Shown: positions 6,971 through 40,298 of the stretch, piece by piece
How positions within the stretch are numbered: position 1 is the stretch's first letter
Layout: the number at the start of each line of letters is the position of its first letter
Source of the DNA: an uncultured Bacteroidota bacterium
Lineage (GTDB): Bacteria; Bacteroidota; Bacteroidia; Bacteroidales; JAAUTT01
Length of the DNA: 64,000 nt
Reading direction: 5' to 3'
Assembly (NCBI GenBank): GCA_963846585.1
Contig: CAWJWO010000018.1
Location: forward strand, 427,759-491,758
Made by a program: the position numbers and the translations under genes
Notes under the pieces: generated by a model
Told to the model about the DNA's origin: nothing
Database searches by the model: none
What the model saw: only the letters and a program-made list of their open reading frames with translations

Positions 6971-7457
6971 ATATATAACTATACTGATTTTTAGTGGTAA
7001 ATGGATACATTGCCTGTTTTTAATTTTATGTATAATTATAACAAGCTGTAAATACAATAGTATTTACGATAAATCAACCAATATACCAAATTACAAATGG
7101 AGCAAAAATTCGAAAATCAATTTCGAAATACCTGTCTCAGATACTATAAATGGATATAATATTTTGATTTCCCTGAGAAATGACAATGACTATCCTTACA
7201 GTAACTGCTTCCTTTTTGTTAATACTATCTCACCAAAAGGGATAATTATACACGATACAATTGAATTTTCACTGGCGGATGAGCATGGTAAATGGTTAGG
7301 ACATGGATTTGGCGGTGTATGGAGTACTGAATTCTATAAAAAAAACATAAGGTTCCCGGTTAAGGGGCCCTATAAAATTGAAGTTATTCAGGCTATGAGA
7401 GACGAACCTTTGGTTGGAATTATGGATGTCAGTATTCGCATCGAAAAAGCAAAATAA
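6954..7457 (+). CDS. gldH: Gliding motility lipoprotein GldH
   Basis: Start moved to the internal ATG at 6954, giving MKKLNKY...IIITSC, a lipobox with Cys. The body motifs LRNDNDYPYSNCFLFV and DEHGKWLGHGFG fit my recollection of GldH. Overlaps the ricT 3' end by 17 nt. Confidence 0.8.
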   Translation: MKKLNKYITILIFSGKWIHCLFLILCIIITSCKYNSIYDKSTNIPNYKWSKNSKINFEIPVSDTINGYNILISLRNDNDYPYSNCFLFVNTISPKGIIIHDTIEFSLADEHGKWLGHGFGGVWSTEFYKKNIRFPVKGPYKIEVIQAMRDEPLVGIMDVSIRIEKAK

Positions 7458-7578
7458 AAGAATCTCTAAAAGCCTCAACTTTTTTGTTGGACTTCAAATT
7501 TTAAATCCTCATTTACCTTAAGTAAACTGCGGTTTAAAATTTTAGTCCGCCTCTAATTTGAGGCTTTAGAGATTCTTT
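7458..7578 (+). repeat. Nested-hairpin repeat, copy A (subfamily 1)
   Basis: Outer stem AAAGAATCTCTAAAAGCCTCAA / TTGAGGCTTTAGAGATTCTTT. Inner AT-rich stem CTTCAAATTTTAAATCC / GGTTTAAAATTTTAG. Core CTCATTTAC-CTTAA-GTAAACTG. It starts 1 nt after the gldH stop. Copy B is essentially its reverse complement. Confidence 0.9.
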
Positions 7579-7593
7579 AAAAAATAGGGGATT

Positions 7594-15088: not shown

Positions 15089-15159
15089 ATTAAATATTTT
15101 TACTGCCGAAGGTAATATTTTAATTTCAAATCATTGTTGTACGGATAAAATACTATCTC

Positions 15160-15289
15160 GTCCCTGACGGGACTTTCTGTTATTATTATTTCATTATCTG
15201 CCAATATGTTGTCCCTACGGGACTATCCCGTCAGGGATTAAATATTGGTAGAAACAAATTCACCCCTGCATTTAAGTCCCGTTAGGGAC
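15160..15289. repeat. Cluster of GTCCC-N3-4-GGGAC mini-hairpins
   Basis: GTCCCTGACGGGAC (15160-15173). A long imperfect palindrome CTGCCAATATGTTGTCCCTACGGGA / TCCCGTCAGGGATTAAATATTGGTAG (15198-15251). GTCCCGTTAGGGAC (15276-15289). Confidence 0.85.
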
Positions 15290-15381
15290 GGCATATTTAC
15301 ATTCAGAATAATTTGACATTTTTTACAAATCAATAGTGATTTAAAATAAATTTTCTTCAAAATTTTGAATAATCAAAAAAA

Positions 15382-15414
15382 ATACTTTACTTTGATAAAG
15401 TATATACTATACTT
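15382..15414 (+). promoter_or_regulatory. Candidate oriT for the MobV relaxase (overlapping inverted repeats)
   Basis: ATACTTTA-cTTTGA-TAAAGTAT (15382-15403) overlaps AAGTATA-TAC-TATACTT (15398-15414). The shared TAAAGTATA arm and overlapping-IR layout resemble the pMV158-type MobV oriT as I recall it. It lies about 220 nt upstream of mob. Confidence 0.45.
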
Positions 15415-15497
15415 CATATTTAAGTTTTAACAGGTATATCGCATTTTGATACTGCTACTAACTAATCCTGAGCAATTAATAATAGTTAATTAATATA

Positions 15498-15617
15498 GGG
15501 TACCTCTAAAGGCCTCAAATTTGAGGCGGGCAAAAATTTTAAACCGGAGTTTACTTACAGTAAATGAGGATTTAAAATTTGAAGCCCAACAAAAAAGTTG
15601 AGGTTTTTAGAGGTGCC
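15498..15617 (-). repeat. Nested-hairpin repeat, copy B (subfamily 1, inverted relative to A)
   Basis: Outer stem GGGTACCTCTAAAGGCCTCAA / TTGAGGTTTTTAGAGGTGCCC. Inner stem GGGCAAAAATTTTAAACC / GGATTTAAAATTTGAAGCCC. Core GGAGTTTAC-TTACA-GTAAATGAGG. Near-identical to the reverse complement of copy A. It ends 17 nt before the mob ATG. Confidence 0.9.
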
Positions 15618-15634
15618 CTTAAACTTCAAAAATT

Positions 15635-16708
15635 ATGACACAATTTGCAGTACTACACATCGAGAAAAACAAGGGCAGTCAAATAGGCTTAAGTAAACAC
15701 ATCAGCCGGGAAACAATCCCTGCAAACGCTGATCCTTCAAGATTGTACCTTAATGAAACTCCTGTTGGTTCAAGGAATCAAATGCAAGACATAAAGGATC
15801 GGATAAAGGAAGGTGTGACTCAAAAAACTGCTATCAGGAAAGATGCAGTAAAAGCAATGCAAATAATTTTAACCGGCAGCCACGAACAGATGAAAGTTAT
15901 TGAAAGCAACGGACTTTTAAAAGACTGGATGAAACAAAATATATCCTGGCTTGATAAAACATTCGGAAAAGCTAACGTAGTGAATGTTACCTTACACATG
16001 GATGAATTAACCCCTCATGTTCATGCTACTGTTGTACCTATAACTTCCGACGGACGATTATGTGCAAAGGATTTCATGTCAAAGGAACACCTGAAAGGTT
16101 ATCAGACAAGTTACGCCAAAGCAATGGAACCTTTTGGCCTGAGCCGCGGTTTGGAAGGAAGCAGGGCTAAACATCAGGATGTAAAACAGTATTACGCTAA
16201 ACTGAATTACGAACTTCCAAAAATTAATAAGGAAATTGAGGAAAAACAAGAAACGGTAAAAGTACTTAAAAATGAAATCAGGGTTGATACAGCCTGGAAA
16301 ACCGTCACAGGTATTGTTGATGGATTTGCAAAGCGAAAAGAAAATAAGGACAAAGAAGATGAAATTGCTTCTTTAAAGAAAACAGCAGAACAACTTTCAA
16401 TTGATCTTAATAATTTACAGAAAGAGTTTGCTAAATCCAAATTAGAATTGAATAATACTAAAAAAGAATTTTCAACTTTACATGCTGAGATAGATAAATC
16501 AATGCAAGAAGGTTTAAAACAAGCCGTCCATACAATTAATCATTTGATATATAGCCAAATTGAAAAACCATTATTTCAATTTGAACTAATATACAAAAAG
16601 GAAAAGCCTGTAATAGAATTAAAACTTATTAAACCAACCAATCATGTGCCTACAGTGGAAGAAATAATGGGCAAAAATGTAAGAAAAAGAAATTTGGAGC
16701 GGTTGTAG
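15635..16708 (+). CDS. MobV-family (Mob_Pre) conjugative relaxase
   Basis: 357 aa. The N-terminal relaxase motifs align with MobM of pMV158: LHIEKNKG...SKHISRE, IRKDAV, and the metal-binding HMDELTPHVHATVVP (HxDE...PHxH). The C-terminal half is coiled-coil. The stop codon lies inside the first GGTTGTAGA repeat word. Confidence 0.85.
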   Translation: MTQFAVLHIEKNKGSQIGLSKHISRETIPANADPSRLYLNETPVGSRNQMQDIKDRIKEGVTQKTAIRKDAVKAMQIILTGSHEQMKVIESNGLLKDWMKQNISWLDKTFGKANVVNVTLHMDELTPHVHATVVPITSDGRLCAKDFMSKEHLKGYQTSYAKAMEPFGLSRGLEGSRAKHQDVKQYYAKLNYELPKINKEIEEKQETVKVLKNEIRVDTAWKTVTGIVDGFAKRKENKDKEDEIASLKKTAEQLSIDLNNLQKEFAKSKLELNNTKKEFSTLHAEIDKSMQEGLKQAVHTINHLIYSQIEKPLFQFELIYKKEKPVIELKLIKPTNHVPTVEEIMGKNVRKRNLERL

Positions 16709-16797: not shown

Positions 16798-16844
16798 TCT
16801 TATAATACTGTTTAGTATCTGTCTTTAAAGTGCATTGTTTGGAT

Positions 16845-16946
16845 CATAAAGTTCGTAGCCGAGGCTTGCGAAGATTAAAAATCAGGAGTTTACTAAAGTA
16901 AATGACTGATTTTTAGGCGAGCGTAACGAAGGATACGGACTTTATG
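16845..16946 (-). repeat. Nested-hairpin repeat, copy C (subfamily 2)
   Basis: Outer stem CATAAAGTTCGTA / TACGGACTTTATG. Inner stem TTAAAAATCAG / CTGATTTTTAG. Core GGAGTTTAC-TAAA-GTAAATGAC. Flanking CGAGGCTTGCGAAG and CGAGCGTAACGAAG. It lies 8 nt downstream of the minus-strand SPOR gene stop. Confidence 0.85.
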
Positions 16947-16954
16947 AACAAACA

Positions 16955-17926
16955 CTATTTAGAAAGAAGCCACACCTCTTCCATCCCCTTCATTGCCCTT
17001 ATTTTTTCACATTCACTTAAAGCTTTTTCTTTATCTCCGAATTCCCCTAACGAAACCCTGTATAAATCTTCTCCGAATTGTAAAACTTCTGTTTTAAATC
17101 CATCCTTTTGATAAATATTAGCAAGAATAGTTGCACGTTTAAATGTATTAAAACTGCCGCCAATAATAAAATAGCTTTTGCCTTCAGAGGGTTTTGCCAC
17201 CTTTACAGAATCAATAGCAAGTGCATTCTTTTTATCGGTTTTATTATTGAAAAATTTTTCCAAATCACTTACTTTGGTAGTATCCGGGATTAATTTAACA
17301 GCAGATGGTACCTTCACATTTTTGTCAGTTACAGTAATTTTACTTACAGTTTTTGTAATAATATATCTTGATTTTATTTTACTAAAATTTATATACACGA
17401 AAATTGCTCCACCTGCAAAAATTAATATGCCTAAAGCATACAGAATTTTGAAAATGGTTTTTTTAAAATTTTTGAGGGATTTTTCATCATTTTGATTAGG
17501 GCCTGATAAAAAATCCAAAGATCTATAATCAATTTTAGATAACCCAAAGGAATCAGTTAAAAAATTAGAACCATATTCACGATCAAACCGGATAATATCG
17601 TGATCTTTTGAAAAATACCCAATCCCTTCCAAAAGAATTGTTTCTCCTTTGTTCAATTTCTTATTAAAAGCGTCAACCTGATGTTTTACAAATTTTTCTG
17701 CATTTTTTTTTGTTATCTTCTTCTGCTGAGCTATTTGTTGGACAAAAAAATCATCAGGACTATCAAGTTGCTTATTAAAAATTAAGAACTTAGTAGGAGG
17801 TGTAATAGTATGTTCTTCACTATTAATCTCTGCAGCCCTGTATATTGTCTTAAATCCTCCAATTCCCGGAATTATTAAAATATCATTGCTATATAATAAT
17901 TCCTTAATGTAAATTGATAATTCCAC
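16955..17926 (-). CDS. HU-CCDC81-like N-terminal domains + TM + C-terminal SPOR domain protein
   Basis: 323 aa. The N-terminus LIIPGIGGFKTIYRAAEI is typical of the bacterial HU-CCDC81 domain. One TM helix follows, then a C-terminal SPOR-like segment YFIIGGSFNTFKRATILANIYQKDGF...YRVSLGEF. Confidence 0.7.
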   Translation of the reverse strand: MELSIYIKELLYSNDILIIPGIGGFKTIYRAAEINSEEHTITPPTKFLIFNKQLDSPDDFFVQQIAQQKKITKKNAEKFVKHQVDAFNKKLNKGETILLEGIGYFSKDHDIIRFDREYGSNFLTDSFGLSKIDYRSLDFLSGPNQNDEKSLKNFKKTIFKILYALGILIFAGGAIFVYINFSKIKSRYIITKTVSKITVTDKNVKVPSAVKLIPDTTKVSDLEKFFNNKTDKKNALAIDSVKVAKPSEGKSYFIIGGSFNTFKRATILANIYQKDGFKTEVLQFGEDLYRVSLGEFGDKEKALSECEKIRAMKGMEEVWLLSK

Positions 17927-38725: not shown

Positions 38726-40066
38726 ATGAAAAAAATGCTGGTAATAAGTTTAGTACTTGCGGCACTTAGTGGAAGTTGCGGGAAAGGCACCGGTGAAGGT
38801 GAACTGACTGGTGTTAAGGGAAGGCCAAAATATTTTGAACCCGATCCATTCGGAATGGTTTTCATTCCACAGGGAAGTTTTAACATGGGTCCTAGTGATC
38901 AGGATGTGTCATGGGCACAAAATATTACATCGAAGACAGTTTCTGTTGATGCTTTCTGGATGGATGAATCTGAAATGACAAACAATAAATATCGCCAGTT
39001 TGTTTATTGGGTCCGGGATTCAATTATGAGAAGAATGCTTGGCGAATCGCAGGAAGACTTTCTCATTAAAGAAGATGAAAATGGCAATCCGATTGACCCG
39101 CCTATGATTAACTGGAAAACTAAAATTGACTTTAAGGATGAAGAAACCAACGAAGTGCTTAAAGATATTTATCTCCCTGTAAATGAACGTTTTTATTTCA
39201 GGAAAGAAATAGATACAAGGAAACTCATGTATGAATATTTTTGGGTTGATTTACAACAGGCTGCCAAAAAAAGCAACCGTTATAATTTCAATAAAAAACA
39301 ATACGAAGGAGTGGCATTTAATGTAGCAGGGGAACAGGTTAAGGTTCAGGACAGGACTCCATTCATTATGCGTGATGTGGTTAATGTTTATCCAGATACA
39401 TTATGCTGGGTTTCCGACTTTACCTATTCATACAACGAACCTATGTCAAACATGTATTTCTGGCATCCTGCCTATGACAATTACCCTGTTGTAGGGGTTA
39501 ACTGGAAACAAGCTACCGCATTTTGTATTTGGAGAACACAATTATTAAATGCCAGTTTGCATAAATCCGGAGAACCTGGTGTCCACGAATACCGTCTTCC
39601 TTTGGAATCGGAATGGGAATATGCAGCCCGTGGCGGATTGGAAAATTCCATGTATCCGTGGGGAGGAATGTACACCCGGAACAAACAGGGATGCTTCCTT
39701 GCAAATTTCAAACCTATGCGGGGTAATTACATTGACGATGGCGGATTTACAACCATGCGTGTTGGTTCCTACGAACCTAATGAATTCGGACTTTACGATA
39801 TGGCAGGCAACGTTTCCGAATGGTGTGCAAATGCATATGACGAATCAGCTTATAATTTCATGCACGATTTAAATCCTGATTATAAATATAATGCACGGCC
39901 CGATGACCCACCTTCAATGAAACGTAAGGTAGTTCGCGGTGGATCGTGGAAAGATATTGCTTATTATCTCCAGGTTGGTACAAGAACTTACGAATATCAG
40001 GATACTTCCAAATCATATATTGGATTTAGATGTGTTCGGTCGTATCTTGGAGGCAACTCTAAATAG
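38726..40066 (+). CDS. gldK: Gliding motility / T9SS lipoprotein GldK (PorK)
   Basis: 446 aa. Lipobox LSGSC, GELTGVKGRPKYFEPDPFGMVFIPQGSFNMG, and the FGE/SUMF1-like C-terminal region RGGSW. Confidence 0.95.
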   Translation: MKKMLVISLVLAALSGSCGKGTGEGELTGVKGRPKYFEPDPFGMVFIPQGSFNMGPSDQDVSWAQNITSKTVSVDAFWMDESEMTNNKYRQFVYWVRDSIMRRMLGESQEDFLIKEDENGNPIDPPMINWKTKIDFKDEETNEVLKDIYLPVNERFYFRKEIDTRKLMYEYFWVDLQQAAKKSNRYNFNKKQYEGVAFNVAGEQVKVQDRTPFIMRDVVNVYPDTLCWVSDFTYSYNEPMSNMYFWHPAYDNYPVVGVNWKQATAFCIWRTQLLNASLHKSGEPGVHEYRLPLESEWEYAARGGLENSMYPWGGMYTRNKQGCFLANFKPMRGNYIDDGGFTTMRVGSYEPNEFGLYDMAGNVSEWCANAYDESAYNFMHDLNPDYKYNARPDDPPSMKRKVVRGGSWKDIAYYLQVGTRTYEYQDTSKSYIGFRCVRSYLGGNSK

Positions 40067-40186
40067 TGCCTTTAAGAAACTGTCAATTTCTGCGTTAGGC
40101 TCATCATCAAAATGCTCATTTACTATCAGTAAACTCCGCTTTTGATGATTTCGCAAGCCTTGAACTTGACAGTTTCTTTAATGTCA
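40066..40186 (+). repeat. Nested-hairpin repeat, copy D (subfamily 2) in the gldK-gldL gap
   Basis: Outer stem GTGCCTTTAAGAAACTGTCAA / TTGACAGTTTCTTTAATGTCAC. Inner stem TCATCATCAAAA / TTTTGATGA. Core GCTCATTTAC-TATCA-GTAAACTCC. The flanks GCGTTAGGCTC and TTCGCAAGCCT match the reverse complement of copy C. It starts on the last base of the gldK stop. Confidence 0.9.
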
Positions 40187-40207
40187 CTCAATTATAATAA
40201 TTGTAAT

Positions 40208-40229
40208 AAAACGCCAAATTTGGCGTTTT
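40208..40229 (+). terminator. Perfect 22-nt palindrome AAAACGCCAAATTTGGCGTTTT (possible terminator/attenuator)
   Basis: Perfect inverted repeat ending in TTTT, located between gldK and gldL, 70 nt upstream of the gldL ATG. Confidence 0.4.
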
Positions 40230-40298
40230 CCTTGTGAGATATAAATGATTATTTTAATATTTAAAATATAATTTCTTTCAGTAATATATTTATTTAGT

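Follow-up and report, generated by a model that had tools for sequence, protein, structure and literature searches.

Palindromic intergenic repeats in a Bacteroidales genome are probable mobile relatives of the enterobacterial ERIC elements

A 64,000-nucleotide stretch of the genome of an uncultured Bacteroidales bacterium (contig CAWJWO010000018.1, positions 427,759 to 491,758; below, the window) harbors four copies of a long nested palindrome. These copies are very probably non-autonomous, non-coding intergenic repeats of the MITE type (miniature inverted-repeat transposable elements), 120-150-bp palindromes that are diverged relatives of ERIC (enterobacterial repetitive intergenic consensus) elements, and they are probably mobile. 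The window copies themselves are ordinary repeats; what is new is that ERIC-type repeats occur in a phylum in which reviews do not place ERIC. The four copies are given below with limits set by the extent of the palindrome, by which they are slightly longer than in a preliminary description of the window.

Copy A (subfamily 1): 7457-7578, plus strand, 122-bp imperfect palindrome
Copy B (subfamily 1): 15497-15619, minus strand, 123 bp
Copy C (subfamily 2): 16829-16956, minus strand, 128 bp
Copy D (subfamily 2): 40065-40188, plus strand, 124 bp

Reading the sequence at each place confirms that all four copies are real and lie where that description had put them, on the same strands. Each folds as a single long, nested hairpin whose stability exceeds that of shuffled sequences by z-scores of -6.5 to -10.4 (copy A, -47.8 kcal/mol and z -10.4; copy B, z -7.3). 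The core pattern TCATTTAC-N3-5-GTAAACT matches four times in the window, where 0.00 matches are expected from 100 shuffles, and takes the form CTCATTTAC-CTTA-AGTAAACTGC in copy A (7508-7530). Compared across opposite strands, A and B agree at 86% of their positions; identity is 73% between C and D, which have CGTTA(C/G)GCTC and TTCGCAAGCCT in common, and 62-72% for the remaining pairs set in the same orientation. Alignment and folding thus agree with the nested anatomy and the two subfamilies that had been proposed. Copy D also has alternative, shorter limits at 40078-40174 with TTTAA on either side, the genomes available for comparison being too diverged to fix an exact target-site duplication. 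All four copies are intergenic. The open reading frames (ORFs) of the flanking genes enter A, C and D by just one or two stop-codon bases. Among ORFs of at least 60 amino acids, a single one overlaps a copy substantially; this frame of 68 amino acids (39939-40145, GTG start) also covers the gldK end and is in all likelihood spurious. The copies thus show the generic features of MITEs, being small (122-128 bp), non-coding, multicopy (four in 64 kb and at least 120 loci elsewhere) and bounded by inverted repeats.

The relationship to ERIC, or intergenic repeat units (IRUs), is shown by covariance models applied reciprocally. The 75 family members behind model R1 include neither a window copy nor an enterobacterial one. 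R1 scores 101 bits on D (E 1e-23), 72.6 on C, 70.3 on B and 60.8 on A (E 2.6e-13), and with filters off it finds no fifth copy in the window, the best other match reaching 14.7 bits. In all six enterobacterial loci searched, from E. coli, Enterobacter, Klebsiella, Salmonella and Rahnella, the top match of R1 is the ERIC copy, which is hit at full length and on the corresponding strand (27.6, 27.5, 18.8, 14.9, 11.4 and 8.2 bits). Conversely, model R2, built from these six ERIC copies only, returns the four window copies as its four top matches in the 64-kb window, namely C with 42.7 bits (E 1.9e-9, 16830-16956), B with 27.4, A with 21.9 and D with 21.4 (E values up to 2e-3), and the next match has 18.9 bits. 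As judged from these models, the homology between the window family and ERIC is distant but reciprocal, and the window family is a diverged ERIC/IRU relative rather than a member of ERIC in the strict sense. The earlier idea of a new structured RNA is only partly right, since the reciprocal matches point to a relative of ERIC/IRU and not to a dedicated RNA gene. Rfam gives no match in the window at its gathering thresholds, in line with the failure of the preliminary description to name a known RNA family. At E values up to 10 there are weak matches only, mostly to plant miRNA-precursor models and with at most 26 bits, far below threshold, and these are explained by the long hairpin shape alone. 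That the element might map to a known family, either from Rfam or derived from insertion sequences, had been considered at the outset; through the ERIC repeats it does so in spirit, but not through Rfam.

The two ERIC-PCR primers, which read CGCTCACCCCAGTCACTTAC-TTAT-GTAAGCTCCTGGGGATTCAC when abutted, have the layout of the center of the window family. This 44-mer is found in 5,426 of 5,426 complete E. coli genomes, at a median of nine places per genome. The E. coli copy between ybhI and ybhJ, which starts 3 nt past the ybhI stop codon and has TA at both ends, contains the ordered blocks GCGTT, CTCA, TCACTTAC, GTAAGCTCC, TTCA and GCCTT. The block order common to the window copies, to copies from other phyla and to ERIC is (outer stem)-CTGCGTTA-(stem 2)-CTCA-(stem 3)-TCAYTTAC-loop-GTAARCTSC-(stem 3')-TTCR-(stem 2')-GCCTTG-(outer stem'). 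Reviews describe ERIC as a MITE of 127 bp that has terminal inverted repeats, duplicates its target site, ends in 5'-TA-3' and is confined to Enterobacteriaceae and Vibrionaceae. Known since 1990-91, it underlies ERIC-PCR typing. The reviews consulted report that it is transcribed together with its neighbors and, in Yersinia, affects mRNA decay in an orientation-dependent, RNase E-linked manner, and they name no enzyme that mobilizes it. The window family resembles ERIC in length (122-128 bp in the window against 127 bp), in the block order GCGTT...CTCA-(stem)-TCAYTTAC-loop-GTAARCTCC-(stem')-TTCR...GCCTT, in the covariation of the central 5-bp hairpin, and in consisting of long imperfect palindromes that are intergenic, often lie directly after a stop codon and, in some copies, have TA at both termini. 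It differs in its hosts, which are Bacteroidota including that of the window, Pseudomonadota and further phyla instead of the Enterobacteriaceae and Vibrionaceae to which reviews limit ERIC. It also differs in its arm sequences, in the A/T-rich stem 3 (AAAATGC/GCTTTT against CCCCAG/CTGGGG in ERIC) and in the core, where TCATTTAC/GTAAACTCC stands against TCACTTAC/GTAAGCTCC in ERIC, a T-A pair replacing a C-G pair, and ERIC copies score just 8-28 bits under the window-family model. The literature searched holds no report of ERIC in other phyla, and a literature search by sequence words returned unrelated primers only.

Beyond the window, a pattern scan of 185,579 genomes, one per species, finds at least 120 loci, nearly all of which show the full architecture by eye, and a scan of viral contigs finds 29 loci, about 12 of them with the flanking architecture. 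Scanning other genomes has thus revealed a very large, cross-phylum family with strong covariation, as the preliminary description had hoped. The consensus is (outer stem)-cTGCGTTA-(stem 2)-CTCA-AAATGC-TCATTTAC-N3-5-GTAAACTCC-GCTTTTT-CG-(stem 2')-GCCTTG-(outer stem'). Among the 80 matches listed by title, 35 are from Bacteroidota (Bacteroidales, Alistipes, Tidjanibacter, Saprospiraceae, Chitinophagaceae, Flavobacteriales, Marinilabilia, Anaerophaga and Geofilum) and 39 from Gammaproteobacteria or unclassified Pseudomonadota, including many Pseudomonas, Stutzerimonas and Aquipseudomonas as well as Halomonas, Salinicola, Acinetobacter, Rheinheimera and Methylophaga. Nitrosomonadales contribute two of these matches, and Vampirovibrionales, Oligoflexales, Arcobacter and Mariprofundales one each. 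Element sizes cluster at about 123-124 bp in Bacteroidota and at 142-150 bp in Gammaproteobacteria. By a crude gene caller, 76 of the 87 scorable copies of the family are intergenic.

The hairpin is maintained from its tips to its center. In the alignment of 75 sequences, 92.2% of the cells form standard pairs, and shuffling lowers this to 68.2%. Covariation scores 0.592; shuffles give 0.155 (none of 500 as high), sliding the partners gives at most 0.123, and all 13 variable pairs have changes on both sides. Compensatory change, which the preliminary description had proposed to look for in the stems, is therefore seen in every stem, the outermost included. Its view of a conserved core within variable stems is true of the window; family-wide, the central 5-bp hairpin itself covaries, and only its CTCA...CTSC flanks are fixed. 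Since the core pattern served as the query, the apparent invariance of the core across phyla is partly ascertainment, and the model-based search does find copies with compensated changes in the two halves of the central 5-bp stem. In the family this stem occurs as TTTAC/GTAAA, TTGCC/GGCAA, CATAC/GTATG, TTTGC/GCAAA and TGTAC/GTACA, and in ERIC as CTTAC/GTAAG, CCTAC/GTAGG, CATAG/CTATG and CATAC/GTATG; the CTCA and CTSC flanks stay constant throughout while the stem varies. An invariant core across phyla was accordingly dropped as partly an artefact of the core-pattern search. The unpaired asymmetric blocks GCGTTA, GCCTTG, CTCA and CTSC are candidates for sequence-specific recognition.

The elements come and go at orthologous sites, and such presence/absence polymorphism, seen at the B, C and D sites, is what is expected of MITEs. 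In relatives, the relaxase gene that separates B from C keeps its synteny (83%, 71% and 67% identity). Copy B is absent in L153 and L154, whose relaxase is 83% identical, and in the alignment it stands out as inserted 17 nt 5' of the ATG. Three tandem copies of another subfamily, with a period of 115 nt, occupy the C site of L153; in L155 and L157 that site is empty. The gldK-gldL spacer measures 37-55 nt in four relatives (GldK 92%, 83%, 83% and 79% identical), compared with 232 nt in the window, and alignment with three of them (L284-L286; GldK 92%, 83% and 83%) identifies D plus about 60 further bases as an insertion. Copies occupy all kinds of intergenic setting, and no consistent gene partner of the copies is found, the neighbors being unrelated: flagellin, FolD, PFK, PaaA, a dehydrogenase, RuvA, YebC, DnaK, an ABC transporter and phage tail genes flank copies elsewhere or lie between paired ones. 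A transposase was also looked for between paired or inverted copies (L003, L032, L057, L059, L096, L104, L113 and L117), where only housekeeping and phage genes occur.

The palindromes of A, C and D start in or directly at stop codons and are sense to the genes concerned, as had been claimed for three of the four copies (after gldH, gldK and the SPOR gene). The window carries gld and type IX secretion system (T9SS) genes, and its closest GldK homologues are from named Bacteroidales metagenome-assembled genomes. Copy A starts within the gldH stop codon (TAA 7455-7457), between gldH and a methyltransferase gene, both on the plus strand, and has TA on either side (7455-7456 and 7578-7579). Copy C starts within the stop codon of the HU-CCDC81/SPOR gene (TAG 16955-16957; gene 16955-17926, minus strand), between convergent genes, and copy D starts within the gldK stop codon (TAG 40064-40066), in the gldK-gldL spacer of a porP/sprF-gldK-gldL-gldM cluster; both have TA on the left side only. 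Copy B, unlike the other three, is not 3' of a gene. Its place is the spacer from which a DUF4197 gene (minus strand) and the MobV relaxase gene (plus strand) diverge, 17 nt 5' of the relaxase ATG, with TA at or adjoining both ends. By their position, the copies are presumably co-transcribed with their neighbors, and D would be transcribed with its flanking genes if gldK and gldL are co-transcribed.

By the gene calls of a crude ORF picker, 56 of 87 copies family-wide have a gene end some 60-70 nt 5' of the core as read on the TCATTTAC strand, with the element abutting the stop codon, and 16 of the 87 lie between divergent genes. By the same calls, 36 of the 51 copies flanked by co-directional genes have the TCATTTAC strand as their sense strand (p = 0.005). 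Of 124 copies, 111 fold better as the strand GGAGTTTAC...GTAAATGAG, the mean advantage being 8.4 kcal/mol. G-U pairs outside the core are equally frequent on both strands (296/4013 and 310/4075), and the asymmetry of folding therefore belongs to the fixed core and is silent on which strand acts. With arm G-U pairs equal on the two strands, strand-specific selection for an antisense RNA or a bottom-strand DNA form was set aside. TA is present at both termini in 15 of 81 copies, compared with 2 of 81 control positions, and the E. coli ERIC copy, A and B have it on both sides. Insertion of an element beginning with a purine into the TA of a TAA or TAG codon would regenerate the stop codon, which would explain the position 0-8 nt after it.

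These features suggest how the repeats may have spread. An enzyme supplied in trans would catalyze insertion at TA or A/T-rich intergenic sites, presumably with duplication of the target, and the inserted element would then be transcribed together with the flanking genes. In the transcript, an imperfect RNA hairpin of about 55 bp may alter mRNA processing and decay depending on its orientation, as reported for ERIC in Yersinia. The asymmetric center (CTCA-hairpin-CTSC) together with GCGTTA and GCCTTG are the likeliest parts for the mobilizing enzyme or a host factor to recognize.

Several other repeat systems share features with the window family. The Correia elements of Neisseria (NEMIS or CREE) are also MITE-like intergenic palindromes, of about 100-155 bp, with TA at their ends, and the one copy compared, on a viral contig (L255:9228-9333, 106 bp), aligns to R1 through the arms CAAGGC...AACGC(T)GTA with a weak score of 17.5 bits (E 0.006). 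However, the Correia center is unrelated, lacks the CTCA-hairpin-CTSC core and is skipped by R1. The resemblance of the arms is a lead, and a deeper link between Correia and ERIC-type elements is possible. Repetitive extragenic palindromes (REPs), with their bacterial interspersed mosaic elements (BIMEs) and with the REPINs mobilized by REP-associated tyrosine transposases (RAYTs), are similar in being abundant extragenic palindromes that often lie behind genes, differ from species to species and are believed to function or move in the form of single-stranded hairpins. A REP is a G+C-rich hairpin of 20-40 nt with a GTAG head and is associated with a RAYT gene that has REPs on either side, whereas the window family consists of a single 120-150-bp A/T-rich nested hairpin with an asymmetric core conserved across phyla. 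No RAYT/Y1 transposase is present among the neighbors examined, and no genome-wide RAYT search was made. The attC sites of integrons are likewise imperfect palindromes directly behind ORFs, in fixed orientation, for which the folded structure matters more than the sequence. But attC conserves its ends (RYYYAAC...GTTRRRY) and varies in the center, which is the reverse of the window family, and the neighbors of the window family are core housekeeping genes (gldH, gldK, dnaK and ruvA) and not cassettes. No integrase is seen near the copies examined. An attC identity was rejected because the anatomy differs, the GTTAGGC of copy D being internal and having no RYYYAAC partner.

Several points tell against the assignment to MITE-type relatives of ERIC. 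The termini are the least conserved part of the element. On each arm, four of the seven outermost positions are not the same in A and B, mostly with compensation (three of the differences are fully compensatory, and GGAC/GTCC also changes to GGGC/GCCC), and termini that drift and are compensated are a poor fit to a transposase binding terminal inverted repeats. A transposase or an autonomous parent element was found neither in the window nor beside about 125 copies. Target-site duplication is not clean: in C and D, TA occurs only on the left, and across 81 copies the TA signal is modest and uneven between the ends (34 left versus 17 right). The R1 scores for ERIC are modest, three of six lying below 15 bits, the orientation bias depends on the crude gene calls, and the effect at the RNA level is argued purely by analogy with ERIC. 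Covariation itself can arise without selection, through arm-to-arm template switching in DNA palindromes. Variable termini around a center that is held across phyla leave room for a structure-specific single-strand mechanism or for maintenance by a host factor. It is rather unlikely, but conceivable, that the elements moved or recombined as single-stranded DNA hairpins through a structure-specific enzyme, such as an HUH or RAYT-like nuclease or an attC-style tyrosine recombinase, with no transposase acting on duplex terminal inverted repeats. Such a history would suit the full-length complementarity, which extends to the outermost pairs while the terminal sequence is free (A versus B), the asymmetric center with its conserved flanks and covarying 5-bp stem, the presence in one genome of subfamilies with quite different termini, and the lack, among the neighbors, of a DDE transposase with matching ends. 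However, none of the neighbors examined links the copies to an HUH, RAYT or recombinase gene. The MobV relaxase beside B, presumably an HUH nuclease, keeps its synteny in relatives without B, and about 120 other loci contain no homologue of it. Terminal TA is typical of TA-duplicating DDE transposons, for example IS630/Tc1. Inspection of the four copies reveals no attC R/L boxes, template switching between the arms could keep complementarity without any such enzyme, and terminal TA is what reviews list for ERIC and the Correia MITEs. More broadly, and tentatively, ERIC, the window family and perhaps the Correia arms might belong to a single superfamily, either ancient or spread horizontally, that is present in at least five phyla and is maintained and propagated as folded single-stranded DNA or RNA, and in which a structure-specific factor and not a transposase reading terminal inverted repeats would read the asymmetric center with GCGTTA and GCCTTG. 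Although this is not the outcome we expect, it would account both for the compensated drift of the termini and for a center held from Bacteroidota to E. coli.

The conserved hairpin could also be explained by a function in RNA, the copies being cis-acting structured modules in 3' untranslated regions or intercistronic spacers (a stabilizer, a destabilizer or a processing site) that are kept for that function, with mobility secondary or ancient. This is possible but less favored. Three of the four window copies are at a stop codon in the sense orientation, 56 of 87 copies family-wide follow a gene end, and the 36:15 bias between co-directional genes, the covariation of all helices including the central hairpin, and the unpaired GCGTTA, GCCTTG, CTCA and CTSC conserved across phyla all agree with it, as does the orientation-dependent, RNase E-linked decay that reviews describe for ERIC in Yersinia. 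Yet copies also occur in divergent, promoter-side spacers (B, and 16 of 87 in the family), folding is worse on the sense strand (in 111 of 124 copies, with a mean difference of 8.4 kcal/mol), and the equal arm G-U pairs on both strands give no sign of strand-specific selection on RNA. Moreover, the neighboring genes are unrelated, copies are gained and lost at orthologous sites, and tandem arrays exist. Long hairpins directly after three stop codons might also suggest ordinary transcription terminators or chance palindromes 3' of genes, but this is very improbable: no T-run follows any of the four copies, a terminator scan around D finds none, B lies 5' of a gene start, and the same ordered blocks recur at at least 120 unrelated loci across phyla, with the core found four times in the window against zero expected. 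Still harder to credit are oriT-like (origin of transfer) or recombination sites of the MobV (Mob_Pre) relaxase, a proposal that arises because the relaxase gene has B and C, in one shared orientation, on its two sides, with B 17 nt 5' of the ATG. The relatives with 83%, 71% and 67% identical relaxases lack a copy at the B position, and two of them also lack one at C; tblastn detects no relaxase homologue in about 120 other element-bearing loci, and A and D are far from any relaxase gene. With the relaxase syntenic in relatives that have no copy at the B position and no relaxase homologue at the other loci, the link to Mob is coincidental. Kinship with ERIC and spread as MITE-type repeats therefore remain the preferred explanation of the four copies.

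If so, relatives in Bacteroidota, pseudomonads, Halomonas, Nitrosomonadales, Arcobacter and others provide comparative leverage that enterobacterial copies alone never gave. Copy number can be set against protein families over thousands of genomes in a search for the mobilizing enzyme, and the conserved unpaired blocks can be tested as binding sites, so that a cross-phylum family with an asymmetric center is a handle on how ERIC elements move and what they do. For annotation, the family explains long hairpins in operons such as gldK-gldL, which could otherwise be mistaken for regulatory RNAs.

Some further observations concern the diversity of the family. A Pseudomonas-group subfamily has the same core with quite different arms (...GCGGCCCGAAGGGCGAGCGGAGCGAGTCATGC-core-...GATTCGCTGGCGCTCACCCTTCGGGCCAGCC); these arm variants are listed from L060, L068, L093, L110, L126, L003 (66-87) and L009, and from L052, L053 and L098, and some copies of this group are chimeric, with one ordinary arm and one arm of the variant type. 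At L047, L069, L087 and L094, the left arm carries an extra small hairpin, inserted at a fixed position. Two or three copies follow one another head to tail, in tandem arrays whose periods are about 115-125 nt, at L153:8768-9016, L080:1357-1584, L118:1-231 and L097:729-1105. In the L153 array, the three copies are nearly identical and have common terminal stems. Such arrays suggest self-targeted insertion or unequal recombination. Family members are also found on predicted viral or prophage contigs of IMG/VR (L003, L009, L011-L014, L018-L021 and L024), where the copy of L003 adjoins P2-type tail genes, and phages may therefore carry the repeats between hosts. The Correia element at L255:9228-9333 has the arm blocks CAAGGC...CAACGCTGTA in common with the window family.

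Other observations concern the surroundings of the copies in the window. The relaxase gene (15635-16708, plus strand) is a chromosomal MobV/Mob_Pre gene (Pfam E 1.5e-39) between the DUF4197 and SPOR genes. In its 5' spacer, an invariant AAGTATATACTATACTT block at about 15398-15414, present in L153 and L154 as well, could be an oriT or the promoter of the relaxase gene. Four small hairpins of the form TCCC-N3-4-GGGA (e.g., GTCCCTGACGGGAC) lie within 130 nt at 15161-15288 and nowhere else in the window. The stretch that contains them, about 15120-15300, is absent from the orthologous spacer of L153 and L154, and it may therefore be a second, unrelated inserted element. About 20 nt 3' of copy D, still in the gldK-gldL spacer, lies a perfect palindrome, AAAACGCCAAATTTGGCGTTTT, at 40209-40230. 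It is also absent from the short gldK-gldL spacers of L284-L286, and it resembles a hairpin of the bidirectional terminator type, an odd place for which is the inside of a gldKLMN cluster.

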